Shown: positions 48 through 53,556, numbered from the stretch's first letter. The stretch is 64,000 nt of DNA from Flavobacteriales bacterium (GCA_002737705.1 NSIM01000005.1:10623-74622); one strand, 5' to 3'. Notes: generated by a model from the letters alone, not told the origin. A program made the numbers and translations.

Positions 48-782
48 TTACAAAGGTTTGAGGCAAATGTTATCGATCAAAATCTCGCCGTCGGCTTCCA
101 ATTGTAACAGAAATTGTTTAATCATGGAAGGGTCGGTTTTGAAGGATTCAAAGGGGAACATCGACATTGGAATGGATACTTCTGTCCAACTGCTATTGGA
201 AATGGGTGTAGCAATCAATTTTGATGAAAATCCCAACCAGCACTGAGCGCCAGTATAATCTTCAAAGGCGATGGCAAAGGGAAGGGAACGAAGTGTATCG
301 CCCGTACTCTTGAACTGAAAGGATAACCTTGCTGCATCGCGAAGTCCGCTAATGTCTTTGGGTTGCCAGTTGTCCCAGCCGATTCCCATGCCAATCCAAG
401 TGCATCCGCCACCGATTTTATCCCAAGTTAAACGGATATAATTGTTTCCTTTTTGGGCATCGCCGGATTCCTTTTTGATTTGAACGCATTTGGGTTCTTT
501 GGAAATCCATACTTGCTGACCCAAATCTTCGTCCATCAGTTGGAGCGCGTAAAATCCATTGATATTTGGACTTTCTGGGGCAGAGGACATATCGTATAGC
601 CCTTGCTTTTTGGCATATAGCCACTTTCCTTTTAGTAAAACCGTATCCATTTTTTGGATGTCGTTGCTATCCGTTTGCGCGAAACTACTGTTTGGAAACA
701 TCGCAAGGAAACCCCACATAATGATGAATGAAATCCGCGGATTTGTGGTGCAATGGGGAAAGGAAATTCTACAACGCATCAT
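48..782 (-). CDS. secreted carbohydrate-binding-like protein; terminal gene of the GH operon
   Basis: 244-aa ORF with a hydrophobic N-terminus ending SSFAQ. It is Trp/Gly-rich and beta-rich. It sits 3 nt after the stop of the upstream lipoprotein gene. The function is guessed from operon context. The real start may be the internal Met at 719. Confidence 0.4.
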   Translation of the reverse strand: MMRCRISFPHCTTNPRISFIIMWGFLAMFPNSSFAQTDSNDIQKMDTVLLKGKWLYAKKQGLYDMSSAPESPNINGFYALQLMDEDLGQQVWISKEPKCVQIKKESGDAQKGNNYIRLTWDKIGGGCTWIGMGIGWDNWQPKDISGLRDAARLSFQFKSTGDTLRSLPFAIAFEDYTGAQCWLGFSSKLIATPISNSSWTEVSIPMSMFPFESFKTDPSMIKQFLLQLEADGEILIDNICLKPL

Positions 783-784
783 CG

Positions 785-1789
785 TTATAACTCTAACGGA
801 CCTTTTTCAGTGAACATGATACAATCGATTTTTGTACTCGCCGCACCGTTCGATGGATTCGCTAAGTGCAACATGCTAACCATGACCAAAGAATTGGGAT
901 TATGTCGGCTATTGCCATTGTTGCTGGCAGGAACGCCATTCACGAGGTGAATCATATCGCTGTATTTAAACGAAACCAATTTCCAACCTTCCCATGTAAT
1001 ACGAAGCTCACTGTCGTATTGGTCGTCGTTGGCCGGATCAAACTTCCCATTGGCATTGTCGTCTTCGCGGAACTGAAATAACACTCTACTTTCATTGGTA
1101 TTGGGTTTCCCGTAAATCAGGCAATTGAAGTAAACGTCTTCGCCCACACTACTTAATGGATAGGTGGTTTTTCCATAGGCCGATGCTGGGAAATCAATCA
1201 TACCGATAAGCCAATCCCAGTTCACCGTTCCGGCCATATTCAGATAATTGCTACCTTCTACATTGAATTGATCGTTGTGAATTTTGAAATCCATGCCACC
1301 TCCGGTTTGAATAAACGTGGTCCATTTGGTGTTCATGCCTGACTCAAAGTTGGCAACCACAAAACCCGAAGGGTTGCGGAGTCCAGTTATCCCGATTGTG
1401 ACATTAAAAGTATCGGTTACACCTTTTACCAGCAAAGTCGCCACGCAGGGTTCGTTTTTGAACATTGGAAAAAGAGTGGTGCTGCCATTCCATGTCGCCG
1501 TTGACGCATCGATGATTCTACTTTTCCCGGTGATAAATTTTTGTGCACCAGAATTACTGCCTTTGATTCGGATGGTCCAATCGCAGAGTTTGGTGAACTT
1601 GGCGGTGAATCCTACAGTCTCCGATTTGGAAAAGTCTACTGAAGATTTGTTGGCTTGGAAGGGTTGTAACATGCCGAATTGACCGTTGAGATCGCTGAGG
1701 CTAGGCCCGTCGAAGGAACTGTTGTCTCGCTTACAGCTTGATGCGAGCAAGGTGGCGGCAATCACGAGGGTAAGAATTTGTTTTTTCAT
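785..1789 (-). CDS. surface lipoprotein; SusE/F-like glycan-binding candidate
   Basis: The signal peptide MKKQILTLVIAATLLASSC has a lipobox Cys. It lies 10 nt downstream of the beta-barrel gene stop, in the same operon. Confidence 0.45.
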   Translation of the reverse strand: MKKQILTLVIAATLLASSCKRDNSSFDGPSLSDLNGQFGMLQPFQANKSSVDFSKSETVGFTAKFTKLCDWTIRIKGSNSGAQKFITGKSRIIDASTATWNGSTTLFPMFKNEPCVATLLVKGVTDTFNVTIGITGLRNPSGFVVANFESGMNTKWTTFIQTGGGMDFKIHNDQFNVEGSNYLNMAGTVNWDWLIGMIDFPASAYGKTTYPLSSVGEDVYFNCLIYGKPNTNESRVLFQFREDDNANGKFDPANDDQYDSELRITWEGWKLVSFKYSDMIHLVNGVPASNNGNSRHNPNSLVMVSMLHLANPSNGAASTKIDCIMFTEKGPLEL

Positions 1790-1798
1790 CGCTAGGGA

Positions 1799-3529
1799 TT
1801 AAAAGGTCATGTTATAAACAACCATCCACTGGTTGATTTTGTAGTTGTTGAAGGCGTGAATTTTGTCTTGATAATTCGATTGTTGGTAAAGCGCAGCCAA
1901 GTAGGCTTTTTCACCAAATCGGAAGCGAATGCCCGCGGCAGAAACCGTTTGATTCAAATTGCCATTGTATTTGCTGAAATCGATGACTTCGGTAAAGCCG
2001 TTGCGATCCGATAACAAATCATTTCCCTTGCCCTGAAGCGCGGTGTAGCCAATCATCAAGTCCATGCTAGGCAGTAGTTCAAATTCGGCACCCATTCCGG
2101 TTTGGAAAGAGGTGAGGTCAACAGATTCGAAGGCGAATTGACCTGCTCTTTGTGTGTTTTGGTAGCAGGCGGAAGCCGATAATTTGGCAACGCGATCCCA
2201 ATGAAAGTATTTTCCAAGGTTGGCGCCCAGTTGAAGGCGGGTCATCATAAACGATTTCAGCGCTGAGGTGCCTTGTCCGCGAATTTCTTTGAGTTGATGG
2301 TGGCTAAATTCTGACTGAATCACCTCATTCTTACTGTTGTATTTTCCTTTAAGGTATAAACCCTGTCGGTTAAAAGTAGCCTGTCCGTATGGCAATACAT
2401 TGTTAATCAACGGATTGTAGGCCATGAGTTTTGGGTTGATGCCGGTGCGGTACAATAGGCTATTGCCCGTGATATCGCCAAAATTCAGCGGTCGATCTGC
2501 TTGGGTTTGCTTATATCGGTTAAAGAAATTGGATTGGGCATTGTAGTCGACGCGTTTGCTTTGCGCTCCTGGGCTGCGGAAATCAGGACCCACATTCAAA
2601 TATCCCAATTCAGCTTCCCATTGTTTGTTTTCTGGCGAAAGGGTAATGGTGGGATTCATGAAGTAATCGGTGAGTGTAGGCGCGGTTGTATCGATGGTAT
2701 AATGGTAACGTGAATTTCCAAATTCGCCTTGAAGTTGGGCATTGAGTTTCCCGATTTTGTTGTTGTATCGGAAGGTTATGGTATTGACGATATTACTAAA
2801 AACGTTGGTATCCAAAGCAGTTCCTTTCACATCAAACAGGGCAGCCAGATTATAGGCCAAACTCAAATGATTGCTTTGGATTAAATCAACGGTGGTTCCG
2901 CCAAACAATCGGTCTTGGACGTTGCCGAAATTGGTGGCGTTCATTCGTGTGAGGTAGGCGTTGACATTGAGTTCTTTGACAAATTTGATGAACTGTAAAC
3001 CCCAATCCAACGACAAGCCCTGTTGTCGCCAAGTATTTGATTTGTAGAAGGTTTCATAATTTACGATATCGCGCTGTAGCTGAAAAACACCCGGTTGGCC
3101 GATCAACTGATCCTCGTTGTGGTTATATAGGGTAAAGGGGGTTTGCTTTAGGTTGATATCGCCCAATTGGTATCGAACTACATCGGCGATGATGCCTTTT
3201 ACCCAAAGCTGACGTACGTCGAAAGACACTCCGGCACCATAAAATCCACCGTATTTGTTGTTGATGCGAATCATCCCTAGAATTTCAGTGTTTTTGTTGG
3301 GGCTGATGTTAAATCCTAAATCAACGAGAGCATAACCCGCCACTACTTTTTTTGCTGTGGTTTTGTCGGGTATGGTATCGTTCACTTGAATATCGGCATT
3401 GGAGATGATCGAACGTGCTCCGCCTGTGAATAGGACTTTAGGACCAGTTTGGCCTTGGGTGATGTTGGCGATCAGGGTTGCGACTAGGGCAGTGGAAAGG
3501 GTATATAATCGGTTCATGGATTGTTGCAT
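1799..3529 (-). CDS. outer-membrane beta-barrel protein; putative porin, possibly of the Bacteroidota-specific ~600-aa family
   Basis: 576 aa with an N-terminal signal peptide and alternating amphipathic beta-strand patterning. The C-terminus is ...YNMTF, and a terminal Phe is typical of outer-membrane barrels. There is no TonB plug and no lipobox. Its start overlaps the upstream gene's stop by 1 nt. Confidence 0.5.
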   Translation of the reverse strand: MQQSMNRLYTLSTALVATLIANITQGQTGPKVLFTGGARSIISNADIQVNDTIPDKTTAKKVVAGYALVDLGFNISPNKNTEILGMIRINNKYGGFYGAGVSFDVRQLWVKGIIADVVRYQLGDINLKQTPFTLYNHNEDQLIGQPGVFQLQRDIVNYETFYKSNTWRQQGLSLDWGLQFIKFVKELNVNAYLTRMNATNFGNVQDRLFGGTTVDLIQSNHLSLAYNLAALFDVKGTALDTNVFSNIVNTITFRYNNKIGKLNAQLQGEFGNSRYHYTIDTTAPTLTDYFMNPTITLSPENKQWEAELGYLNVGPDFRSPGAQSKRVDYNAQSNFFNRYKQTQADRPLNFGDITGNSLLYRTGINPKLMAYNPLINNVLPYGQATFNRQGLYLKGKYNSKNEVIQSEFSHHQLKEIRGQGTSALKSFMMTRLQLGANLGKYFHWDRVAKLSASACYQNTQRAGQFAFESVDLTSFQTGMGAEFELLPSMDLMIGYTALQGKGNDLLSDRNGFTEVIDFSKYNGNLNQTVSAAGIRFRFGEKAYLAALYQQSNYQDKIHAFNNYKINQWMVVYNMTF

Positions 3530-5394
3530 TAGAAGAAAATTTTGATTTCAACGGTGGTTTCCCAGCCTTTGTATTGGTCTTTGCTGAAGCTTCGGTCTTG
3601 GTAATTCATCCATCGCTGACGGATATAAAGGCCTGCGCCTTTACTCATTTCTATGTCAAAGCCGGTGGCCAAGCCCCATCCTTCCTGATTTCGAGGACGT
3701 CGGCTGATGGCATCTACTGTGGTGTTATAATTTGCGATGATTCGCTCCCAACCTACGTAATTGGCAAAGACAACTTTTGGAGAGAGATGGTAATAGGCTT
3801 CTAGCTGATGATAATAGGTTCTCAAATAGGCTTCTTCGGTGAATAAGGTAATTGCGGAACGCTTTTTTTGCACTGACGCGTAAGAGCCTAAGTAGGTGAT
3901 GAATAAATCTCTGTATGCAAGTCTGGTTTTGTATTTCGCATTCACTTCGATGTTGATGAAATACTTCTTATACAACGGAACACCAGTGGAGGTGCCGTCG
4001 GTAAGATTCACTGTTTCAAAGACGCCGCGATACACTTTTGTTAGATTTTGATACGGACCAACATTGGCCGGGAATCCCCATCGCCAAAAGCGAGATAGGG
4101 AGAGGTTGTTGACGGGGTGGGAGTAGGTGAGTTGGGAAGAGATATTTTCGATTTCGTTGGCGTTGGTATATCCGATGCTCGTTTTCAGTTTGCCGATTTC
4201 GAATTCTGTGTTTAATTCAATACCAGTTCTGTTGTTTGTGATTTGGCCTACAGGAACCATCGCACTAGAAAAAGGTACCAAAACGAGTTGGTCTGAGCTA
4301 CTAGAGCTGCTGACGTTGCCTTCGCGAATGGAAGAATTCCAGAATACGGATGAGTTATTCAAAACCCTTGGACTTACGCGGTAGTAACGAATTAAAAGGG
4401 GGATGCCTGTGGTGGTCTTGGGGAAGCTTAGTTTTAGGTCGATGGCTTCGCCCCATCCTTTGGCTAGGGTTGGACTGAAGTATCGTCCAGCACCCACCTC
4501 GCCGGAAATGGTTAATATGCGTTTTTTGATTTGGAATTCGGCAGTATGCATATTGAATCCAACCCCATGGGTAAGGAGGCTGTCTGAGTAGGTTTGGTTG
4601 TTAAACGTATTTAAACTGACATAATCGTTGCCAAATAATTTTTTCAATTTTCCGCCATAGGATTGATTAGGGAGGGGCGCCATTCCGCCGTTGAGCTGGG
4701 TTTTCCCAAACATAATAACCCCGGAAAGATTCTTGGGCATATCGTTGGCTTCAAGAATAATCCCTTGAAAGGCTTGACGTCCCCATCGGGTGTCTTGGTT
4801 TAGCGCGCCGTTGGTATAGAAGGTGTTATAGCGGTCGGCGACATTGCTTGTTTGGGGATCCCAAGGGTTTCTTTCGAAGATGGAATATCGATTGAAGCCG
4901 GGATTGGTATGGAAAGTAAATGGCGTGAGTGCGTACCAATTGATACCTCCCGCAATTACGTTGAGGCTTCCTTTTTGGAAATCATGGGTTCCAGTTAAGC
5001 TGACGCCCAAGTTTAGCCCTTTTATATTTTCCGCTTGACCAGCGCCGGTCATTGGGGTCCACAAATAAAAATCGGTTGAAAATCTTGTGCTAGGGGTGAT
5101 GCTTCCGCCCATGTTTAGCATGAGTTGTGGGATTTGAGCATCGTCGCCGACGAAAATGTGGGTTGGGGTTTTGGCTTGGTCAATATAGCTACCCCGGTTA
5201 AACATATCTTTCGAATTTTGCAGATATCGCACATTGGCAATAAAACGGTAGTAGCCTGAAATGGTAAATCTTTCCAACTTTTCCGGGGCTTGTTTTGGAT
5301 AAACGCCAAGAGGGTAAATTGTATTTGTGATTTGCGCCACAGCGTTTGTCGTGATAATTCCCCAAAATGCGATTGTAAGTAAATATCTTTTCAT
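3529..5394 (-). CDS. outer-membrane beta-barrel protein; putative porin, paralogous in architecture to the neighbour
   Basis: 621 aa with signal peptide MKRYLLTIAFWGIITTNAVAQ. The C-terminus is ...EIKIFF. No plug domain is present. It starts 5 nt after the GH stop. Confidence 0.5.
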   Translation of the reverse strand: MKRYLLTIAFWGIITTNAVAQITNTIYPLGVYPKQAPEKLERFTISGYYRFIANVRYLQNSKDMFNRGSYIDQAKTPTHIFVGDDAQIPQLMLNMGGSITPSTRFSTDFYLWTPMTGAGQAENIKGLNLGVSLTGTHDFQKGSLNVIAGGINWYALTPFTFHTNPGFNRYSIFERNPWDPQTSNVADRYNTFYTNGALNQDTRWGRQAFQGIILEANDMPKNLSGVIMFGKTQLNGGMAPLPNQSYGGKLKKLFGNDYVSLNTFNNQTYSDSLLTHGVGFNMHTAEFQIKKRILTISGEVGAGRYFSPTLAKGWGEAIDLKLSFPKTTTGIPLLIRYYRVSPRVLNNSSVFWNSSIREGNVSSSSSSDQLVLVPFSSAMVPVGQITNNRTGIELNTEFEIGKLKTSIGYTNANEIENISSQLTYSHPVNNLSLSRFWRWGFPANVGPYQNLTKVYRGVFETVNLTDGTSTGVPLYKKYFINIEVNAKYKTRLAYRDLFITYLGSYASVQKKRSAITLFTEEAYLRTYYHQLEAYYHLSPKVVFANYVGWERIIANYNTTVDAISRRPRNQEGWGLATGFDIEMSKGAGLYIRQRWMNYQDRSFSKDQYKGWETTVEIKIFF

Positions 5395-5398
5395 GGGC

Positions 5399-6748
5399 TT
5401 ATGGATTAAAACTGTCCATGGTGAATTTTTTTACGCGGACCGATTTGGGTTGGGTAGAGTTTGCGCTTGCATCGACATAAAAAGGGTAGTTGGCGTAAGC
5501 GATTTTGTTTTGATATTCGATATTTACAAACAGTCGGTAAGCCCCTTCTTCATTGGGCGCTTTGAACTGTATGCGTTTTGATTTGCCTTTTTTGATCAGA
5601 CCCGGAATTTCGGTGGCCTCGTTTTCTGCATCACCCCCGGCTTTTTTGTCGTTGCTTTCGGCCAAAATTTTCCAACTACAATGCACATTATGAGTGTCGT
5701 TGGGGGTTTGATTGTATTGAATCAAATAGGCATCGGCGAAGGCTTGGTTGATCGAATTCGCGGGCACATGAAGTCCGCTATAAGCGTTTTTCCCGTTGAC
5801 GAGCAGATTCGTAATGCTGGGAGTTGATGTCGTTGGGCTCTGACTGCTCCAAGCAATTTGCAGCGCATCAATGGCTTGCGTGGGCTTGCCATCTTTGGTG
5901 AAAAGGCCATACCAGGTAAGTGTATATTCCTGTTTTTGTCCCCATAAAAACACATACGACCCTATGCAATCTTGGGGATTTGCTGCTATATAGTTTGTGT
6001 ATCTTTTATTGTAGACTTCTGCTTTTTCGAGGCTACTTTGTTCAATGGCAGCGCCCCATGGCGTAGTGGGTGATTCCCAGTGACCATTGGGTCCCCATTC
6101 GGTGATCATGTATGGTCCTGTCCACCCCCATTTCCTGATATTGTAGGGTACGTTGCCGATATCGCCGTAAGTGTTCACGCAGTATACATCGATGTCTGGG
6201 GCTTTTTGTTTGATGAGCGCCACTTCCATCGAGTCCAAGCCGGCAGTTACCGTAGAGGTTGGGTGGTTGGGGTCTACTTGATGCGCATATTTTGCGATGT
6301 CTTGAATTGCATCCCAAACGCGGGTATTGGAATAAAACAGATCGACTTCATTTCCGATGCCCCACATGAGCAAAGCGGGGTGATTTTTGAATCGATCGAT
6401 AACGCTTTTGAAATGATTGAGTTGCTTTTCTACTTTGGCTTTGTTGCTATAATCAAATCCATGTCGTTCGTGCTGAAGCCACATTCCCAGCATCACAGTG
6501 AGTCCGTGTTTTTGCGCATTGTCGAGGATGGTTTGGGCATCGTCGATTCCCCATGTTCTGATGGAATTTCCTCCAATATTCACGACGACGTCTAGGTGGG
6601 TATCGCCACCGGCGCCTTTGACGTAGTAGATTTTCCCATCGCGCAGCATTTCCCAACCTGTAGGGGTTTGGCGCACCTCGACTTTTACAGCTTGGGCGCT
6701 AGATAGATTGAAAAAAATTAGGGAAAGGAGGGTAAGAAAGTACTTCAA
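5399..6748 (-). CDS. secreted clan GH-A (TIM-barrel) glycoside hydrolase; family undetermined (GH2-TIM, GH5 or GH53-like)
   Basis: Signal peptide present. Motifs: GGNSIRTWG (beta-1 Arg), LMWGIGNEVD (acid/base Glu in an NE motif), and MITEWGP (nucleophile Glu about 80 residues later). A C-terminal ~100-aa extra domain follows. Confidence 0.7.
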   Translation of the reverse strand: MKYFLTLLSLIFFNLSSAQAVKVEVRQTPTGWEMLRDGKIYYVKGAGGDTHLDVVVNIGGNSIRTWGIDDAQTILDNAQKHGLTVMLGMWLQHERHGFDYSNKAKVEKQLNHFKSVIDRFKNHPALLMWGIGNEVDLFYSNTRVWDAIQDIAKYAHQVDPNHPTSTVTAGLDSMEVALIKQKAPDIDVYCVNTYGDIGNVPYNIRKWGWTGPYMITEWGPNGHWESPTTPWGAAIEQSSLEKAEVYNKRYTNYIAANPQDCIGSYVFLWGQKQEYTLTWYGLFTKDGKPTQAIDALQIAWSSQSPTTSTPSITNLLVNGKNAYSGLHVPANSINQAFADAYLIQYNQTPNDTHNVHCSWKILAESNDKKAGGDAENEATEIPGLIKKGKSKRIQFKAPNEEGAYRLFVNIEYQNKIAYANYPFYVDASANSTQPKSVRVKKFTMDSFNP

Positions 6749-6758
6749 GTGTTAAAAA

Positions 6759-7451
6759 TTAAAGGTCAAATGCGAAGTAGCTGCTGGAAAGTTTGCTATA
6801 CTTTTTCGCGTTGTACTTGAACAATTTTGCGGGTCTGTGGGTGACACTGGATTGTTTTAGTCCGGTGTCTGTAATGAAATCCATGGAAAGGATTTTTTTT
6901 CTAAAGTTTCTGACGTCGAATACAGTTTCTAGTATCGATTCGTAGAGCTTTTGTAATTCGGTGAGCGTAAAGTATTTTGGCAGCAGCTCGAAGCCAATGG
7001 GCTGACGACGGATTTTGGCTTTCAGCTGGTCTTTGGCAAAAAGGAGAATTTCATTGTGGTCGAATGGCAAGTCTGGAATTTCGGAGATGGGAAACCAGGC
7101 GGCTTCTTCAGCCCATGAGGATGGGTGAATGTTATAATCTTCAATTTTAATCAAAGCAAAATAGGCAACGGTAAAAACGCGGCCAAATGGATGTCGATCT
7201 ACCTTCCCAAACGTATGAATTTGCTCCATGTAAATTTTATCCAATCCGGTGAGATCTTGCAGTACTTTTTCGGCAGACGAGGACAAGTCGTTGTCTAAAC
7301 TGATTAAATCACCAGGAAGTGCCCAACAGTTCCTGTAGGGGTCGGCACCGCGATAAATGAGCAATACTTTAAGTCCCGATTGGTCGAACCCAAAGACTAC
7401 GTTATCTACGGAGACAGCCGCTTTAAAAAAGGGAATAAGTTTTGGATCCAT
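6759..7451 (-). CDS. NrtR/AraR-family transcriptional regulator (Nudix-like domain plus C-terminal winged HTH)
   Basis: 230 aa. It shares a Nudix-like fold pattern and the C-terminal motifs (DHNEIL, LQKLYESILE, DVRNFRKK) with the paralog at 20199..20969. It lies 10 nt upstream of the GH gene on the same strand. Confidence 0.65.
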   Translation of the reverse strand: MDPKLIPFFKAAVSVDNVVFGFDQSGLKVLLIYRGADPYRNCWALPGDLISLDNDLSSSAEKVLQDLTGLDKIYMEQIHTFGKVDRHPFGRVFTVAYFALIKIEDYNIHPSSWAEEAAWFPISEIPDLPFDHNEILLFAKDQLKAKIRRQPIGFELLPKYFTLTELQKLYESILETVFDVRNFRKKILSMDFITDTGLKQSSVTHRPAKLFKYNAKKYSKLSSSYFAFDL

Positions 7452-7544
7452 GGGATATTTCGCAATGTCCTAGGCGAATATATTGTAAAATATACAATAA
7501 TACAAATGCGAACTCTGAATGGAGGATTTTTTACTTATTTATGG

Positions 7545-7578: not shown

Positions 7579-7782
7579 GGAGATGTGAATACAGCTGAGC
7601 ATCGTAGACTAAATTAGTAAAAAACTAAGTTAGTACTATTGATATGGAAAAAACAAAAGAAATCATTGATTATTTAAAATTTTCAAACAAATTAAGGGTT
7701 TTGCGCTGTTTGTTTATTCGCAGCTTGCTCAAATTCAGGACAAACGGAGCAAATAGCATCAACCGACGACAGTGTCGCCTGG

Positions 7783-7845
7783 GAAGAAACAACTGAAACA
7801 GTTGATGATCCAGAAGAAACAACCATTGAAACAGTTGATGATCCA
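7783..7845 (+). repeat. imperfect tandem duplication (30 + 33 bp) encoding acidic EETTETVDDP / EETTIETVDDP units
   Basis: gaagaaacaac-tgaaacagttgatgatcca is repeated with a 3-bp insertion. It lies in a start-less reading frame that begins with a lipobox-like LFAACSNSG. Confidence 0.5.
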
Positions 7846-8137
7846 GGTTCGGACATTTCAACCGCTACTGCAAATGGGGGTATTGTAGTCTAAATCTGAT
7901 GTTTTTTCAATAATTGGCTGACTTTCCTTTGAAAGCAAGACTAGCACTATGTAAGTTCAAAAAAAACTGAGTAATCAGTTTTAATAAAAAACTGGCGGCA
8001 TAGATACAAATTCAATGATGCAATGTTTACTTTGTTCAAACCTGAAGTTGAAGCAAAAGTGACCTTGGCGTTCCGAAATGATAAAGGCATAATGCATATT
8101 CCTGAAGATACAATGAGTTAATCAATATGCCGACTAT

Positions 8138-8452
8138 TTGATTATTTTTGAAGATAACAATGCAATGATACTGACTGCAAGAATCACCAAACCTCCGCAA
8201 AATGATTCAAGAATTCATGGTGGAGATTCAGACTCGTTTTTAGCATGTTCTATTATTTTCAAGTACAACAAGTATCCTGTGGAAGGCCGAAAATTTGGCA
8301 CTCAAGGAATTTATTGGGAAATTGATGGTTTAGGATTCGTCATTACATCAAACGAAAGTGAAACAGTTTTTTCTAATTCAGAATTGAATACATATACTAT
8401 TTCCAATAATTTCGCCATGTGGCATGCCGCAGGTATTGCACTATTTAACTAA
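8138..8452 (+). CDS. hypothetical protein
   Basis: 104-aa ORF in an otherwise gene-poor interval next to a transposase remnant. No recognisable motifs. Confidence 0.3.
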   Translation: MIIFEDNNAMILTARITKPPQNDSRIHGGDSDSFLACSIIFKYNKYPVEGRKFGTQGIYWEIDGLGFVITSNESETVFSNSELNTYTISNNFAMWHAAGIALFN

Positions 8453-8510
8453 GAACTTACTAATGGCAAAGAAAAATAAAGAAGACACCATTAAGCCTAT
8501 TGAATTGATA

Positions 8511-8699
8511 TTATGGGATGCAGCCAATAAAGTATGAGGCAGCGTCGAACCAGCGCATCAACCCTTTCTCTCCAAGCTGGTCAAACTCATTTTTCCATTT
8601 ATAAAACGCACTCTTTTTTACCCCAAAAAATTCACACGCCACATTGTTTTTACCACGCTCTTTGGCATAGTGTAATACCCTTAAGTAGTTTGTAGGCAT
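8511..8699 (-). mobile_element. truncated transposase N-terminus (HTH / leucine-zipper region, IS481 or IS3-like); pseudogene remnant
   Basis: 62 aa, ...RVLHYAKERGKNNVACEFFGVKKSAFYKWKNEFDQLGEKGL..., resembles the N-terminal HTH of IS transposases. It stops after 62 codons. There is no catalytic domain and no terminal inverted repeats. Confidence 0.5.
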
Positions 8700-8877
8700 C
8701 CCCAGAATTTCGGATTTGCGGTAGTTCGGTTTCTTTGTGCGGGTAACTGATGGATAGTTCCCGTAATTCGAGTAATTGCTTGTCTTTCATCCAAGAGAAA
8801 AGAGAAAAATCCCACAGCATAAGCCATGGGATAATTCTACACTTTTTTTATAAGACGATTTTTTACATGTTTAGCAA

Positions 8878-20198: not shown

Positions 20199-20969
20199 TC
20201 AATTAAACACAGTAATAGAACCCTCCATTTTAAGATTTACTATGCTAGAATATAATTCCTCGGAGCTGCTTCCATTAAAAACATAAAACCGAGCCGGCTT
20301 ATTGCTCACTCCGTATTGTTTTTCAGTCAAGGCCCGAACAAGTCCAGAATGTAACATTTTCCTTCTAAAATTGCGTTTATCAACTTCTCGTTCTAAAATT
20401 ATTTCGTATAGTGACTGCAAATCCCCCATTGTAAATTTAAGGGGTAGTAATTTGAAAGCAATCGGGTAAATCTGAATCATTTCTCGTAATGCCAACAATG
20501 CTGCCTCAAAAATCTCGTTGTGATCAAAGACCAAATCCTTAATTTCGGAAATTGGAACCCACTTTGCCTCTTTGGTAAATGAGCCAGGCTTAATCTCAAC
20601 TTTACTTGTATCAATCAACGCCAAATAGGCTAACGTTATTACCCGTGCATCGGGTTCTTGACGAACACCTTCTAACCAACTGCGATCTTTGGCTTTTGCA
20701 ATCCGCAAAGGGTCTCCAAAGGCTTTAAATTGATGCAGAAAAATCCCAGACAATCCTGTGAGTTCTCTGAGTATTCGGTCGGCAGCCTCATCTAGATTTT
20801 CATTGTCCCGAACTAAATCTCCCGGAAGGCCAAAACGATTATCAGCGTTTTGGAAGGTACTTTTTGCACCGTTTCTATTGATTAACAACAAACACAAAGC
20901 ATTGTCATTTAATCCAAAAATTGAACAATCTACAGAAACATGGGGATTTAAAGATGGGCTCAAAGACAT
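20199..20969 (-). CDS. NrtR/AraR-family Nudix-like transcriptional regulator, paralog 2
   Basis: 256 aa. It shares LPGDL, ELTGL, FDHNEI, LQSLYEIILE and DKRNFRRK with 6759..7451. It is divergent from the kinase and acyltransferase operon. Confidence 0.65.
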   Translation of the reverse strand: MSLSPSLNPHVSVDCSIFGLNDNALCLLLINRNGAKSTFQNADNRFGLPGDLVRDNENLDEAADRILRELTGLSGIFLHQFKAFGDPLRIAKAKDRSWLEGVRQEPDARVITLAYLALIDTSKVEIKPGSFTKEAKWVPISEIKDLVFDHNEIFEAALLALREMIQIYPIAFKLLPLKFTMGDLQSLYEIILEREVDKRNFRRKMLHSGLVRALTEKQYGVSNKPARFYVFNGSSSEELYSSIVNLKMEGSITVFN

Positions 20970-21014
20970 AAATCAACAGGAATTTACACAAGCAATATAA
21001 CCCAAAATTGTTTT

Positions 21015-21046
21015 ATCAAACACAAAAAGTTTTTAAAGTGTTTGAT
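21015..21046. promoter_or_regulatory. 32-bp palindromic element in the divergent intergenic region; operator candidate
   Basis: ATCAAACAC aaaaagtttttaaa GTGTTTGAT. It lies between the regulator at 20969 and the kinase at 21091. Confidence 0.35.
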
Positions 21047-21090
21047 TGACACTTAGAGAAATTTAATTACATTGCAGAAATTTTTAAACT

Positions 21091-21948
21091 ATGATTCTCA
21101 TTGCTGATAGTGGAAGCACAAAATGTGATTGGATTTTTACCGATGGCGGTTCAACGCGTCTATCATTTCACACAATGGGATTCAATCCATTTTTTCATAC
21201 CAGTGAGCTAATCGAAACTGAAATTAAAAAAAATACTTCACTCTTTGCGATCGCTCACCAGGTTGAACAAGTCTTTTTTTATGGGGCAGGTGCCAGCGAT
21301 TTAAAACGCAACGCGGTTGTTGGCAAGGCCCTAAATTCTGTTTTTAGCAAGGCCAAAGTAGTCGTAGACCACGATTTAAATGGTGCCGTTTATGCAACAT
21401 GTGGTGACAATCCAGGTATTTCTTGTATTTTGGGCACAGGCTCTAACAGCTGTTATTTTGATGGAACCACTATATTCGAGGAAGTGCCCGCCCTGGGATA
21501 TTTACTGGGAGATGAGGCAAGTGGAACATATTATGGCAAAGACCTACTTCGCATGTTTCTGTATCACGAACTACCCGAAAAAATCAACAATGGTCTTAAA
21601 GAGAGATACAACCTGACCAAAGAAAGCATATTTGATTCCATTTATAACAAACCGAATCCAAATGTGTATTTGGCTTCGTTCATGCCTTTTCTCAGTGATA
21701 ACCGCGACGAGAAATGGGTGCGAGATTTTATTTACAACGGCTTCAGCAAATTTATAAATATTCATATCTGGAAATACGAAAACCACAAAGAAGTGCCGGT
21801 ACATTTTGTAGGGTCTGTAGCCTTTTATTTTCGTGATCTGTTAAAAGAGGCTTGTAAAATTCACCGCATTCAGGTAGGAATTATTACGAGCGACCCCATC
21901 TTGAATTTAGTAGATTACCACCTAAAAAAATTAGAACTTTTGGCTTAA
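21091..21948 (+). CDS. BadF/BadG/BcrA/BcrD-type ATPase; N-acetylglucosamine-kinase-like sugar kinase
   Basis: The N-terminus LIADSGSTKCDW is typical of this family. Actin-like ATPase fold motifs are present. Confidence 0.6.
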   Translation: MILIADSGSTKCDWIFTDGGSTRLSFHTMGFNPFFHTSELIETEIKKNTSLFAIAHQVEQVFFYGAGASDLKRNAVVGKALNSVFSKAKVVVDHDLNGAVYATCGDNPGISCILGTGSNSCYFDGTTIFEEVPALGYLLGDEASGTYYGKDLLRMFLYHELPEKINNGLKERYNLTKESIFDSIYNKPNPNVYLASFMPFLSDNRDEKWVRDFIYNGFSKFINIHIWKYENHKEVPVHFVGSVAFYFRDLLKEACKIHRIQVGIITSDPILNLVDYHLKKLELLA

Positions 21949-21979
21949 TTACAAACGATTCATTTATTTTTGTTTTGCT

Positions 21980-22930
21980 TTGGCTTCAACAAAATCATCC
22001 AAAAAAATATCACCCTCCGTATCTTCTCAAAAATCCCCGTCTAGTTGGTTGATTGTCTGGGCAGGAATCAGCATTCTTGTTCCTATTTTAATTATTTACG
22101 CCTACAGTGCTTATCCAAAATCAATAAAAATTGGAGCTTTTGAACTCAAAAAGTTACAAGAAATTCAAGATGTTGATGCGATGTTGATCGCTATTGATTC
22201 AACTAACAATCCACTTGCAAAATCTGAAATACAAAAAACTGACTCGATAAGTACCGATTCGATGCCGAGCAATGCAAGGGTTGATATGCCCTTTATCGGT
22301 CCCCATAAATCTTTCATCATCCCGAAATATGAATTCCCACAACCCACAGATAGTACCAAATATAGGATTATATTGATTGGCGATTCTGAAAGTGGGGGCT
22401 TGAGGTATCCCTTAAATGATTATTGTTTTGAAAACGGTCATCGTCTTGTTTTGTCGATGGAGTGGTACTCGGCTACAATATTCAATTTTGCCCGTTCAGA
22501 TACAATAGAGCGTATTATTGCACGTTACAAACCCACCTATATTTTTTTGGTATTTGGACTCAACGAATTATATGCCAGAGACCTGAAAATCAGAAAAAAT
22601 GCAGCAGATTTACTCGCCGAAAAACTTAAAGGAATTCCCTACACATGGATTGGACCTGCCAATTGGCAGGAAGATTTCGGTATCAATACAGTATTTAAAA
22701 GTTCTGCCGACACGGGGTCTTACTTTATGACAAAAAAATTGGTATTGCCCCGAGCTGAGGATGGAAGACATCCAAGCAGTAAGGGTTACAGAATGTGGAT
22801 GGATAGTATTGCTGTTTGGCTAGAAACTGAAGCCAAGTATAAAATATCCATGAAAGTACCCACCAAAAGAGGACGCCCCTTCCGTTCATCGGTCATCACT
22901 TTAAATGCTGCAAAATTCCGTGGATACTAA
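21980..22930 (+). CDS. membrane-anchored SGNH/GDSL-like hydrolase (AlgJ/AlgX-like)
   Basis: An N-terminal TM anchor is followed by ILIGDSESGG, a GDS(L)-type motif. Confidence 0.5.
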   Translation: MASTKSSKKISPSVSSQKSPSSWLIVWAGISILVPILIIYAYSAYPKSIKIGAFELKKLQEIQDVDAMLIAIDSTNNPLAKSEIQKTDSISTDSMPSNARVDMPFIGPHKSFIIPKYEFPQPTDSTKYRIILIGDSESGGLRYPLNDYCFENGHRLVLSMEWYSATIFNFARSDTIERIIARYKPTYIFLVFGLNELYARDLKIRKNAADLLAEKLKGIPYTWIGPANWQEDFGINTVFKSSADTGSYFMTKKLVLPRAEDGRHPSSKGYRMWMDSIAVWLETEAKYKISMKVPTKRGRPFRSSVITLNAAKFRGY

Positions 22931-22958
22931 CTGGTTACAGGGTATTCTTTCCCCATTG

Positions 22959-24416
22959 ATGAAGCCCGAATTCTTGCATAAAGCAATGGCTTATTCTACT
23001 ACTGACCCATGGTTCTTTACAGAATTTAGTTTTTTAGCAATTTTTGGTATCTTTTTGATATTTTATGCAATTTTCATTCAAAAGAATACTTGGCGCAAAG
23101 TATATATCATCGCATTTAGCCTATTTTTTTACTACAAATCGAGCGGCCCATTTCTTGGCCTTTTTGCACTAATGATCTTGAGTGATTATTTATTTGCACT
23201 CCTGATTCAGAAAAAAAATGGGGTAGTGAAACAAATCCTGCTCTGGATCTCACTGTCTTACAGTCTTTCTTTTCTGCTGTATTTCAAATATGCCAATTTC
23301 TTTATTCAAAATTGCAACGAACTTATGGGAACATCCTTTACAAATCAGGATTTGTTCTTGCCAATTGGAATCTCGTTTTACACTTTTCAATCCATAAGTT
23401 ATCTGGTCGATGTATACCGAAATGAAATACCCGCAAGCAAAAACATAGGTGATTATGCTTTTTACATGACATTTTTTCCGCATTTGGTTGCCGGTCCAAT
23501 TGTAAGGGCCAAAGATTTTCTCCCGCAGATTATTGCACCACAAATAATCAACCTCGCCTTATATAAGGAAAGCTTGTTGAGAATTATTACCGGATTATTG
23601 AAAAAATTGTTTGTCGCTGATTATTTGGGAAAATATGTAGACCTCGTTCACCAAACACCCTCAGGATTTTCTGGTGGTGAAAATTTGCTGGCTATGTACG
23701 CTTATAGTTTTCAAATTTATTTCGATTTTTCTGGTTATTCAGACATCGCCATAGGCCTTGCACTCATGCTAGGATACCGACTTAAGGAAAACTTCGACAA
23801 TCCCTATTTGGCAAAAAACATTACTGAATTTTGGAGAAAATGGCATATATCTCTCAGTAATTGGCTGCGCGACTATGTTTATATTCCGTTGGGTGGAAAC
23901 CGCAAAGGGGTTTTTCATACTTACATATTCCTTATGACAACCATGTTTATTGGCGGTCTTTGGCACGGAGCAAATTGGCGATTCGTATTCTGGGGTTTGG
24001 CCCATGGATTGGCTTTGGCTTTGCATAAACTATGGAAACAGATTTTCCCTTCTTCCAAGAGAACTTGGTATTCATCCCTGTTCGGTACACTGTTCACATT
24101 TCATTTTGTAGGACTCTGTTGGATTTTATTCCGTGCGCATTCATTCGAATCGGCCTTTGTTAGTATTGGGCAAATTGCATACAATACAGAATGGCTGAAT
24201 TTCACAGGATTTTGGATATCGCGATCATCCGTTGCCTATCTCTTAGTGATTGCGGCTTTCATTGTATTTTTCCCCGAGAAACTCAAAGAAAAATGTTTCA
24301 AACTGTTGCTTCGTCTCCCCGCTATAACATGGATAATCTGGATTGCCATCGCCCTTCAGATTGTGGTTCAATTCAAAGACGATATTGTTCAACCCTTCAT
24401 TTACTTCCAATTCTAA
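22959..24416 (+). CDS. MBOAT-family membrane O-acyltransferase (AlgI/DltB/PatA-like)
   Basis: A multi-TM protein. The conserved His motif WRKWHISLSNWLRDYVYIPLGG and a downstream LWHG are present. The start is uncertain; the ORF extends to 22905. Confidence 0.8.
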   Translation: MKPEFLHKAMAYSTTDPWFFTEFSFLAIFGIFLIFYAIFIQKNTWRKVYIIAFSLFFYYKSSGPFLGLFALMILSDYLFALLIQKKNGVVKQILLWISLSYSLSFLLYFKYANFFIQNCNELMGTSFTNQDLFLPIGISFYTFQSISYLVDVYRNEIPASKNIGDYAFYMTFFPHLVAGPIVRAKDFLPQIIAPQIINLALYKESLLRIITGLLKKLFVADYLGKYVDLVHQTPSGFSGGENLLAMYAYSFQIYFDFSGYSDIAIGLALMLGYRLKENFDNPYLAKNITEFWRKWHISLSNWLRDYVYIPLGGNRKGVFHTYIFLMTTMFIGGLWHGANWRFVFWGLAHGLALALHKLWKQIFPSSKRTWYSSLFGTLFTFHFVGLCWILFRAHSFESAFVSIGQIAYNTEWLNFTGFWISRSSVAYLLVIAAFIVFFPEKLKEKCFKLLLRLPAITWIIWIAIALQIVVQFKDDIVQPFIYFQF

Positions 24417-26062
24417 TGGCATTCAAGCACATTATTTTTCTTGTTATTGCCCTATTTTTAAATACAAACAATCTTCATTCCCAGTCTGAATCAACAGATA
24501 GCCCTTCTATTTTCAAGGACTTTAATCCCTTGGAGGATTCGCAAAAACTGCAAAAAGCCATGAAAAAATTGCATGCTGTATTTAAAAATCAAGGTAAAAA
24601 AGGTATCGATACGATGTTTACGATCATTCATATTGGAGACAGTCATATCCAAGGTGACTATTTTAGCGGTGAAATTCGCCGGCTTTTACAGGGCTATTTT
24701 GGCAATGCCGGACAAGGATTGCTATTCCCCTATGCTTTGGCTAAAAGTTATGGACCACGGGGAGCATTGCTAAGCCAAAAGGGGGGTTGGACAGGAATCA
24801 AAACCCTAACACCAAACCTTCTTGAGCCCCTTGGATTGAATGGATATGGGGCAGTAACCCACAATGAAAATGCACAAATCACAATTGCATTCAATGAAAA
24901 ATTCAATGATAGTGTATTCCAACGTATCAATATTTGGCATACAGCAGATCCAAAATCATATATTACCCGATTGAACGACGACTTTTCTTGGGCGGGTAGC
25001 CAATTGTATACTTCTGGTTGGGGAGTCAGTTCTTACACAAGCCGAAAATTTGTCAAATCATTTACCCTCACCGCACTCTCGACCCACCCTGTGCAAAACC
25101 ATTATGGATTCTACGGATTTGAATTGCTACCAACCCCTCGAAGAGGAATCGCATACCACCATTGCGGTGTTGTCGGCGCGCAATTCACTCACCTCATCGA
25201 AAAAGCCCCATGGACAATCGAACAAATTGCCCACCTAAAACCCGATATTGTGATTTTCTCATTTGGCACAAACGAATCTTATAATGGAAAACACGATAGC
25301 GCTGTCTATTCTGAATCGGTTCAAAAATTCCTCTCTGAACTGGTTGTTGCATCACCCCAAACTGCAATTATCATTACGACAGCGCCTGATACACGGAGCC
25401 GGAATTTGATACCTCCAAAACAAATATCGGTAAACAATCAACTTAAAACTTTAGCGAAGAATGCCCACCTAACCTTATATGATTTGAATACCGCAATGGG
25501 CGGATGGGGGTCAATGAACTTATGGTATAAAAACAAATTAACCCTTGCAGACAAACTCCATTTTACCGCTTCCGGTTATGCCCTTCAAGGTAAACTCTTT
25601 AGCCTTTCATTCATGCAATTCTATAATAAAGTCAACGAGAAAGACACCCTACCCATTGATACCTTGAGAAATGCAGTTTGCCAATCTATGGAAAATTTAT
25701 GGCTTGATTATAGGGTACTCCCCCTTGGCGATTCAACCAAACCAAATAAAACTTTACAACCAATTCCCATTCTAGTAAATGGTGTTTCATCCGATTCTCT
25801 GCTGAGTACTTCTGAGCCAAAAACCATCTCAAATTTGCCACCCCACAGCAAAACAATCCCTCAGAAAAAAAAGAAATTGGCATCCAACAAAAAAAAGATG
25901 ACTTCTTCTGGAGAAAAAATACACACCGTAAGAAAAGGGGAAAATTTGTACCGCATCGGAAAATTATACCATGTGAGTCATGAATCAATTGCCAAAAAAA
26001 ATCACCTCAATAATCCCAAGGCTATTAAACCCGGTCAAATCTTGATTATTCCCAAGAAATAA
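24416..26062 (+). CDS. SGNH hydrolase with a C-terminal LysM domain (O-acetyltransferase or esterase partner of the MBOAT)
   Basis: Its start overlaps the MBOAT stop (TAATG). The signal peptide is MAFKHIIFLVIALFL. IIHIGDSHIQGD is an SGNH block I. The C-terminal GENLYRIGKLYHVSHESIAKKNHLNNPKAIKPGQILIIP is a LysM-like motif. Confidence 0.7.
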   Translation: MAFKHIIFLVIALFLNTNNLHSQSESTDSPSIFKDFNPLEDSQKLQKAMKKLHAVFKNQGKKGIDTMFTIIHIGDSHIQGDYFSGEIRRLLQGYFGNAGQGLLFPYALAKSYGPRGALLSQKGGWTGIKTLTPNLLEPLGLNGYGAVTHNENAQITIAFNEKFNDSVFQRINIWHTADPKSYITRLNDDFSWAGSQLYTSGWGVSSYTSRKFVKSFTLTALSTHPVQNHYGFYGFELLPTPRRGIAYHHCGVVGAQFTHLIEKAPWTIEQIAHLKPDIVIFSFGTNESYNGKHDSAVYSESVQKFLSELVVASPQTAIIITTAPDTRSRNLIPPKQISVNNQLKTLAKNAHLTLYDLNTAMGGWGSMNLWYKNKLTLADKLHFTASGYALQGKLFSLSFMQFYNKVNEKDTLPIDTLRNAVCQSMENLWLDYRVLPLGDSTKPNKTLQPIPILVNGVSSDSLLSTSEPKTISNLPPHSKTIPQKKKKLASNKKKMTSSGEKIHTVRKGENLYRIGKLYHVSHESIAKKNHLNNPKAIKPGQILIIPKK

Positions 26063-52746: not shown

Positions 52747-53556
52747 GTGGTAAACAACTCACGCGTTTGGTTCATGGTGCTGTTTGGCCTGGTTGGAATC
52801 ATACTGATTGCCAATAGGTGGAAGTCGGCCCAAATTAATCCAAAGGAAACAACCCGTATTGATAAAAGCGAAAAGCCCGTATTCGTTGGTGATGAACTCC
52901 CACAGAAAGAAATCACCCGTATTGAGTTCCTCAATTCGGTATTTGAAAAATCCAAGCCCAGTCCTCTCGTCTCTCGTGTATTGACCAGTAAACCGGGAAG
53001 TTTTGCTAAAGACAGCGTAGAACATGCTCTTCGTTGGGCAGAAGAAACAGAAAATACGGCCTTGGTTGCGCTGCTTCAAACCGACCTATCCGAACAATTT
53101 GGCAATCGCAATGAAACAGAAATTGCCAGAAGCCTCATATTTGCGGGCGCAAGTGTTATGGAAACACCAATCGTTGCAGCTTATTTGTTTCAATTGGGCA
53201 AAAAATATATTGATATTGGATTAAAAAAACAACCTTCAAATACCCAAATTATGAATGCCTTAATCGTTTACCAAAGTGAATATTTAAAAGCGCCAATGCA
53301 ATTTCTAGGAACACTTAGAAAAGCACTCGCAACGGATAGTAGCAATATTGAAACCCATTTTATTCATTTAAATCTATTAAAAAAATCACAACAGTGGCCA
53401 AAAGCACTGAAAAAATGCGAGAAATTGATATCTTTGCAACCCGAAAATTCTAGATGGTTGTTCGAAATGAGCGACATATTTGGTGAAATTGGGGATTCTG
53501 TCAATGCAAAGGTTTACCTTAACTTGGCAGTAAAAACACAGAAAACAAATCAATAA
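52747..53556 (+). CDS. membrane-anchored hypothetical protein, TPR-like
   Basis: An N-terminal TM. No catalytic motifs recognised. Confidence 0.4.
   Translation: MVNNSRVWFMVLFGLVGIILIANRWKSAQINPKETTRIDKSEKPVFVGDELPQKEITRIEFLNSVFEKSKPSPLVSRVLTSKPGSFAKDSVEHALRWAEETENTALVALLQTDLSEQFGNRNETEIARSLIFAGASVMETPIVAAYLFQLGKKYIDIGLKKQPSNTQIMNALIVYQSEYLKAPMQFLGTLRKALATDSSNIETHFIHLNLLKKSQQWPKALKKCEKLISLQPENSRWLFEMSDIFGEIGDSVNAKVYLNLAVKTQKTNQ

Follow-up and report, generated by a model that had tools for sequence, protein, structure and literature searches.

A Nudix-related regulator and a sugar kinase beside a putative peptidoglycan O-acetylation module in uncultured Bacteroidota

Here we analyse a 64,000-nucleotide (nt) stretch of a Flavobacteriales bacterium genome (GCA_002737705.1 NSIM01000005.1:10623–74622; hereafter referred to as the window), focusing on its region 20199–26062. 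The region holds five genes: a transcriptional regulator (REG) on the minus strand and, on the plus strand, a sugar kinase (KIN), a membrane-anchored SGNH protein (SGNH1), an MBOAT acyltransferase and a second SGNH protein with a LysM domain (SGNH2-LysM). The original prediction, made from this sequence alone, took the four plus-strand genes for one operon under REG. A comparison of ~60 loci suggests that two independent units probably lie side by side, namely a REG/KIN remnant of an alpha-glucoside system and an autonomous SGNH1–MBOAT–SGNH2 module of the O-acetylpeptidoglycan (OAP) type, which were brought next to each other by a deletion. The main value of the analysis is thus a correction: adjacency in a single genome hinted at a new regulatory link, and the wider comparison removes it.

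The comparison set consists of 52 genome loci gathered with the SGNH1 family as the anchor, in which homologues of all five proteins were then located, together with further loci, and individual loci are denoted by L-numbers (for example, L005 and L060). The contigs that are identical or nearly identical to the window, as well as all 52 related loci, belong to metagenome-assembled genomes (MAGs) of uncultured Bacteroidota, many of them from lake or river samples. On the evidence of Pfam, structure matches and translations, the five genes and domains named in the original prediction were largely right. The features of the region are as follows.

20199–20969, minus strand: REG, AraR/NrtR-family Nudix-related transcriptional regulator, 256 amino acids (aa); Pfam and structure matches
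21015–21046, no strand: inverted repeat ATCAAACAC-N14-GTGTTTGAT of the original prediction, 32 base pairs (bp), arms 21015–21023 and 21038–21046
21037–21053, no strand: candidate REG operator AGTGT-N7-ACACT, core of a 21-bp semi-palindrome (21035–21055)
21046–21075, plus strand: promoter-like elements of KIN, TTGACA (21046–21051, within the operator) and TACATTGC (21068–21075); sigma-70-like match
21091–21948, plus strand: KIN, PG1100/MurK (BadF-type) family sugar kinase, 285 aa; PDB matches
21965–21972, plus strand: −7-box-like element TATTTTTG (TAnnTTTG), 7 nt upstream of the SGNH1 TTG start
21980–22930, plus strand: SGNH1, membrane-anchored SGNH protein, 316 aa, TTG start; candidate O-acetyltransferase partner (PatB-like role)
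22905–24416, plus strand: MBOAT acyltransferase of PatA/AlgI type, bearing an acyl-shuttle tail of its own, 503 aa; PF03062, 87.8 bits
24416–26062, plus strand: SGNH2-LysM, Ape1-like two-domain SGNH esterase, 548 aa; signal peptide, low-complexity linker and LysM domain at the C terminus

Two units with separate histories

All three genes of the SGNH1–MBOAT–SGNH2 module were found in 41 of 52 loci; in the others the module is cut by contig ends or lacks one detected gene. Only ~18 of these 52 loci also contain REG and KIN, and the gene directly upstream of the module varies: KIN, GH65, a molybdopterin oxidoreductase, proteins with a type IX secretion system tail, or divergently oriented genes. 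In L029–L032, a REG1-like gene (REG1 is a second regulator in the window, described below) and a minus-strand gene stand between the module and the REG/KIN operon. Conversely, the divergent REG<>KIN pair occurs without the module in the lineages L060/L061 and L064/L065. The four-gene operon of the original prediction is therefore not supported as a conserved unit, as the module mostly occurs without REG and KIN and behind variable neighbours.

The divergent pair itself is conserved, and close relatives mostly carry a HAD protein and a GH65 protein after KIN. L060/L061 and L064/L065 have the same REG<>KIN–HAD–GH65 order, with KIN at only ~53% identity (REG, 50% in L060), a gene for a GPH/MFS sugar transporter behind REG and one for an alpha-amylase nearby. 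The HAD protein passes the NCBIfam beta-phosphoglucomutase (bPGM) equivalog (219 versus 189 bits), and the GH65 protein passes PRK13807 (1128 versus 838 bits). A phosphorylase, a beta-phosphoglucomutase and a hexokinase for the freed glucose are the standard set for phosphorolytic use of alpha-glucosides of the maltose type, and by its gene content KIN/bPGM/GH65 is a predicted operon of this kind. The kinase thus heads a KIN/bPGM/GH65 operon in the relatives, which speaks against the proposed coupling of a GlcNAc (N-acetylglucosamine)-kinase-like enzyme to the module.

HAD and GH65 are absent from the whole 64-kb window, in which, as in L005, a clean 31-bp junction separates KIN from SGNH1. 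Scars of their removal are visible in two other loci. In L014 (7676–7946), the 3′ end of KIN runs straight into the final ~100 nt of GH65, whereas in L010 (2842–2922) the first 27 HAD codons survive and the left breakpoint differs from that of L014. Given these scars and the lack of HAD and GH65 in the window, the KIN–module adjacency is best read as a product of gene loss. In the ancestor, KIN, bPGM and the GH65 phosphorylase would have formed the operon and a gene for a sugar transporter would have stood behind REG, and in the window lineage a deletion of ~3 kb would have taken out bPGM and GH65, leaving KIN beside the module. The bPGM and GH65 genes appear to have been lost more than once in the clade, with KIN and REG kept.

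The candidate operator of REG follows the regulator–kinase pair. In an alignment of 18 orthologous REG–KIN spacers, AAGTGT-N7-ACACT(T/A)AG forms conserved columns. Each source with a REG<>KIN pair (25 of 25) has exactly one AGTGT-N7-ACACT, always in that spacer, and the motif is absent from the remainder of the 836 kb of compared sequence; outside this set it is also present in L064, and the L060 operator is a perfect 8+1+8 palindrome. The operators of the family are 21-bp palindromes with a GT-N7-AC core (PMC2330246), a rule that the candidate site fits in both sequence and position beside the regulated genes. The three-gene module is not preceded by a REG-type site in any locus, and this restriction of the conserved operator to the REG/KIN pair speaks against control of the module by REG. 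The sole other match in the window, at 53152, has one mismatch and is within chance expectation, and it was rejected as a second REG operator. Relaxed GTGT-N7-ACAC matches inside the GH65 coding sequence (L012, L018 and L020) were also judged to be due to chance.

The operator overlies the promoter that we infer for KIN from TTGACA and TACATTGC, the latter resembling the Bacteroidota −7 box. TTGACA stands 16 nt upstream of TACATT/TACATTGC, the two together are the joint-best sigma-70-like match in the region (10/12), and TTGACAC and TAnnTTGCA are conserved columns of the 18-sequence alignment. The sigma-70 scan as a whole did not exceed shuffled sequence (18 versus 18.9) and served only to note this one site; the total of the terminator consensus scan did not exceed shuffles either (5 versus 5.9). 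Since the candidate operator covers the TTGACA/−33 element, bound REG would block the KIN promoter. In B. thetaiotaomicron AraR (BtAraR), sugar binding rotates the winged helix–turn–helix (wHTH) domains and DNA affinity falls (PMC4666351). By analogy, a REG dimer would bind AGTGT-N7-ACACT and repress KIN until a sugar effector frees the operator.

The original prediction had placed a 32-bp palindrome in the same control region and took a lack of its conservation in orthologous intergenic regions as grounds for refutation. The inverted repeat exists (9+14+9 nt, with arms that are 100% complementary), but its inner 14 nt are not palindromic, and the left arm is kept only in L005 and absent from all other orthologous spacers, so that by this standard the palindrome is not conserved. 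The conserved REG operator shares part of its left half-site with the right arm. In L005 (6460–6492), two complementary changes (T21016→C and A21045→G) preserve the arms, for which the chance is roughly p ~ 0.03, given 13 differences in 124 columns; this upkeep of the palindrome in the nearest relative is a small unexplained point. The left half of the operator is also mirrored toward REG in the L015 group, by another pair of arms, CAATTATACA and TGTGTAATTG. The mirrored arms may be a lineage-specific second half-site or the mirrored −33 regions of two divergent promoters.

The module seems to have a start signal of its own. The −7 consensus of Bacteroidota, as in Bacteroides promoters, is TAnnTTTG, and a −7-like box is found at the same distance from SGNH1 as in the window in L005, L006, L007, L009, L012, L013 and L014, despite differing flanks. 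In L029–L032, where TAATTTTG stands 9 nt before the SGNH1 GTG start (L029, 7945–7964), read-through is impossible because the upstream gene is divergent. These elements support a promoter belonging to the module itself, with a very short leader.

Several observations weigh against so clear a separation of the two units. A simple scan, which models Bacteroidota terminators poorly, found no terminator-like hairpin in the 31-bp KIN–SGNH1 gap, and transcription from the REG-controlled promoter could therefore run on into the module here. Co-transcription is possible as well in ~13 close relatives in which a short gap separates the module from a preceding GH65 gene of the same orientation. The −7-like box is so close to the start codon, itself not an ATG, that almost no leader would be left on the mRNA; such an arrangement is unusual. 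Finally, N-acetylmuramic acid (MurNAc), GlcNAc or another cell-wall sugar is a possible substrate of KIN, because KIN shares a family with the MurNAc kinase MurK.

The proposal that REG runs one four-gene operon, with the kinase and the O-acylation enzymes in a single pathway that ties a sugar or ADP-ribose signal to wall acylation, as originally envisaged, has in its favour the common strand of the four genes, a 31-bp junction with no terminator-like site and the relation of KIN to K1058 and MurK, which phosphorylates MurNAc (PMC10465942). This proposal is very unlikely: the module lacks REG and KIN in the majority of loci, in L029–L032 a divergent gene stands between them, REG and KIN occur without it in L060–L065, the adjacency arose by deletion, the operator is confined to the KIN promoter, and KIN has a His in place of MurK T94 and, in relatives, bPGM and GH65 as operon partners. 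A weaker version, in which the units are functionally unrelated but read-through from the REG-controlled KIN promoter has accounted for part of the module's transcription since the deletion, so that wall O-acetylation would vary with sugar supply, is somewhat better placed, although we still consider it unlikely. The tight, apparently terminator-free junction, matched by equally tight spacing behind GH65 in relatives, is consistent with it, whereas the conserved −7-like box directly before the module, and the same promoter layout where no transcript could read through, argue for separate transcription; the terminator scan is weak evidence either way, as Bacteroidota terminators are poorly modelled. 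It is improbable, though conceivable, that in this streamlined freshwater lineage the deletion has put the OAP module under a sugar-responsive AraR-like repressor through read-through, or that KIN was kept for a wall-derived sugar, so that O-acetylation is tied to carbohydrate supply; if true, this would be a regulatory link undescribed for OAP clusters. The reading of two independent units, joined by deletion, is the one we favour.

The regulator and the kinase

REG matches the NUDIX (PF00293; 33.1 bits, cut-off 21.1), NrtR_WHD (PF21906; 78.3 bits) and AraR_C (PF19368) domains in Pfam. The hidden Markov model analysis bears out the NrtR type and the wHTH domain predicted for both regulators in the window, with REG1 scoring 88 bits for NrtR_WHD. 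The closest solved structure to REG is BtAraR (5bs6, E = 1.2e-34), and Shewanella NrtR (3gz5) matches only at 4e-10. Its Nudix box, as read from the translation, is degenerate (DRILRE, where REUXEE is expected), and its score for the NCBIfam ADP-ribose-responsive NrtR repressor equivalog is 109.7 bits against a cut-off of 400. Classical NrtR is defined by an ADP-ribose effector and NAD-metabolism targets, whereas the predicted targets of REG are sugar genes. REG is classed here as an AraR-like member of the Nudix-related NrtR family.

Similar to BtAraR and XylR, which belong to the sugar-responsive Bacteroidetes branch of the NrtR family (PMC4666351, PMC2330246), REG has an effector domain that is Nudix-like and, at the C terminus, a wHTH, together with a semi-palindromic candidate operator of ~21 bp with a GT-N7-AC core. 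The original prediction regarded the arrangement as undescribed, but a family member divergent from a sugar kinase is already known as nrtR<>xylB-xylA (PMC2330246), and the REG gene likewise diverges from a catabolic operon led by a sugar kinase. REG differs from BtAraR and XylR, which have pentose targets, in its AGTGT half-site and in its predicted target, a kinase/beta-phosphoglucomutase/GH65 (alpha-glucoside) operon that is reduced to the kinase in the window. A literature search, limited in reach, found no paper linking NrtR-family regulators to GH65 operons. An AraR/NrtR subgroup with an AGTGT-N7-ACACT operator thus appears to govern KIN/bPGM/GH65 operons in Bacteroidota, a target that we did not find described for the family.

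KIN was predicted to be a BadF-type kinase. It scores below the Pfam cut-off for BcrAD_BadFG (23 versus 31.5 bits), but solved structures place it clearly in the PG1100/MurK family: it matches solved kinases at E values of 1e-52 to 1e-60 (1zbs, 1.7e-60; 1zxo), with T. forsythia MurK and K1058 at 1e-52 to 1e-56. MurK, K1058 and the structural-genomics proteins PG1100 and BT Q8A1P1 are of the same family and length as KIN, and the MurNAc specificity of MurK resides in S133-P134-L135 and T94, which leave space for the lactyl ether (PMC10465942). In the alignment with MurK, KIN instead has the small residues PAL at S133-P134-L135 and a His at T94. Other sugar kinases have an Asn at the T94 position, or a His in the case of S. 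tokodaii hexokinase, and in them this residue contacts the C4 hydroxyl. The corresponding xHD/PALG signature is common to most of the 120 closest KIN homologues listed. Whereas MurK is accompanied by MurNAc-scavenging genes, KIN homologues elsewhere adjoin phosphofructokinase (PFK), sugar transporters, amylase or a bPGM–GH65 pair, and these conserved partners of KIN point to glucose metabolism. KIN is most likely a glucose or hexose kinase, and would most likely phosphorylate the hexose freed by phosphorolysis.

A putative peptidoglycan O-acetylation module

The three module genes are tightly linked. The original prediction described TAATG overlaps among them, which is correct for the MBOAT/SGNH2-LysM junction (24414–24418), whereas the SGNH1/MBOAT junction is a 26-nt overlap (ATG at 22905, stop at 22928–22930). 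SGNH2-LysM begins with the ATG at 24416 rather than at 24191, where a longer open reading frame (ORF) starts, in agreement with the gene calls on identical contigs.

SGNH2-LysM aligns with the O-acetylpeptidoglycan esterase Ape1 of Neisseria meningitidis (4k3u/4k40) at E = 2.8e-22, over residues 16–398 against 11–367; 4K40 is the N. meningitidis Ape1 structure (10.1101/788067). The alignment spans the full length, including the beta-sandwich inserted after block I, with GDSH, GTNE and DxxH in register. Pfam detects both GDSL and LysM (45.9 bits for LysM), the latter being retained in 36 genome loci and by every one of the 120 homologues listed.

The MBOAT translation shows the conserved His motif WHISL and ends in FIYFQF, which fits FXYXXF and is kept in 42 of the 44 loci in which the C terminus was found (FIYLQF in the other two). 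FXYXXF is an acyl-shuttle motif: PatA auto-acetylates its tyrosine and passes the acetyl group to PatB, whereas DltB has no such motif and uses DltX instead (PMC12148441). DltB structures match the MBOAT at 1e-30, but DltB identity was rejected in view of the TIGR04091 score (174.5 bits, cut-off 375), the shuttle motif and the lack of Dlt partner genes in the module. The MBOAT has its own shuttle motif, so its DltB-like best match reflects the shared MBOAT core only.

SGNH1 has no match in Pfam or NCBIfam, and a profile of 19 relatives matched nothing in the PDB at E ≤ 1, even though that database includes NgPatB (7tjb) and Cj0610c (8gr2). PatB proteins are built from an N-terminal transmembrane anchor, a linker that is dispensable and an SGNH domain whose block II Gly is replaced, and SGNH1 partly resembles this plan. 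A transmembrane helix (22–44) is followed by disorder to ~125, a linker of ~80 residues, and then the SGNH core, in which the relatives keep GDS, GLNE and DGRH invariant. S136, D261 and H264 are invariant, block II lacks Gly, and S164, also invariant, lies 28 residues past the nucleophile, the same spacing as between S133 and S161 in NgPatB. By comparison of the sequences, the residue before the catalytic His is an Arg, and is hydrophobic in the PatB plan. SGNH1 is a candidate for the PatB-like acetyltransferase role. In many loci, including L016–L023 and the window (21965–21982), the SGNH1 start codon is TTG or GTG, with TAnnTTTG or TAAAATTG 7–9 nt before it. SGNH1 and SGNH2 share only the block III stretch, and the idea that they are recent paralogues was rejected.

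A comparison with known OAP clusters (patA–patB–ape1 in Neisseria and Campylobacter; ape1b–ape1c–pat in Bacteroides and Porphyromonas) reveals a common FXYXXF MBOAT tail, tightly linked or overlapping genes, and the combination of a short membrane-anchored SGNH protein without the block II glycine and a long one with the Ape1 insert (PMC1199599, PMC12148441). Bacteroides and Porphyromonas clusters contain one long and one short Ape1-type gene plus pat, and 27–69% of Bacteroides peptidoglycan is O-acetylated (PMC1199599). The module differs in its gene order, in the lack of detectable PatB homology in SGNH1 and in the C-terminal LysM of its Ape1-like protein, and the only sources in which its family was seen are MAGs of uncultured freshwater Bacteroidota. 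The Ape1 match, the shuttle tail, the PatB-like plan and the Bacteroides precedent together lead us to read the module as OAP-type with a LysM-tethered esterase, as the original prediction had suggested from the MBOAT, the two SGNH genes and the LysM domain. The module most likely adds acetyl groups to the cell wall and removes them, to judge from homology and motifs. The MBOAT would move acetyl from acetyl-CoA to the tyrosine of its FIYFQF tail, SGNH1 would receive it at the membrane and put it on peptidoglycan, and SGNH2, secreted and held to the wall by LysM, would take it off again.

Alternatively, the module might acylate another polymer, such as an exopolysaccharide, a capsule or a glycan, in the manner of AlgI/J/X, WssH/I or PatA1/B1, with LysM as a mere wall anchor. 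MBOAT–SGNH pairs with FXYXXF tails are also employed for alginate, for cellulose and for secondary wall polymers (PMC12148441), SGNH1 is not recognizable as PatB by sequence, and the best NCBIfam match of the MBOAT is DltB. By contrast, neither co-location with polysaccharide-synthesis genes nor AlgJ/AlgX-type SGNH-like partners, the hallmarks of the alginate and cellulose systems (AlgI/J/F/X, WssH/I), were found, and the full-length Ape1 match stands against this substrate range. We regard another polymer as a rather unlikely substrate and prefer the peptidoglycan assignment. On that assignment, abundant uncultured freshwater Bacteroidota would carry a variant OAP cluster, with a LysM-fused esterase and a putative transferase whose sequence is unrelated to that of PatB. 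A transferase of this kind would offer a useful point of comparison for the tyrosine-shuttle mechanism that was recently proposed for MBOAT–SGNH pairs.

The paralogous regulator and its surroundings

The prediction of a second, paralogous regulator next to carbohydrate-related genes is borne out by REG1, which adjoins a GH2-like gene (5399–6748) and heads a GH2-like operon. Its features in the window are as follows.

6759–7451, minus strand: REG1, paralogous regulator, 230 aa; 39% identity to REG (phmmer, 6.7e-45; NrtR_WHD as above)
7481–7499, no strand: candidate REG1 operator TATTGTA-N5-TACAATA (core ATTGT-N7-ACAAT), read from the sequence

ATTGT-N7-ACAAT is conserved upstream of REG1 orthologues in L029–L032, about 100 nt from the REG1-like genes. 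The original prediction suggested comparing the operator motifs of the two regulators: the sites have the same GT-N7-AC geometry, whereas their half-sites differ at one position (ATTGT versus AGTGT). The paralogues therefore appear to share the geometry and to read different half-sites, and offer a neat example of paralogous regulators with separated operator specificities.

A regulator/GH2 pair of equal domain content is also present in L062. Downstream of REG1 and the GH2-like gene, four successive minus-strand genes (48–5394) encode proteins of 621, 576, 334 and 244 aa, none of which has a Pfam or NCBIfam match at the thresholds applied; together with REG1 and the GH2-like gene, they appear to form one operon. 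The ~1.2 kb at 7640–8850 reads without an ORF of at least 150 aa. It includes a direct repeat (gaaacaac.gaaacagttgatgatccag) within a short ORF at ~7790–7850 and apparent truncated gene fragments, such as a short ORF from near 8464 that stops after ...LWDAANKV, which may be pseudogene remnants.

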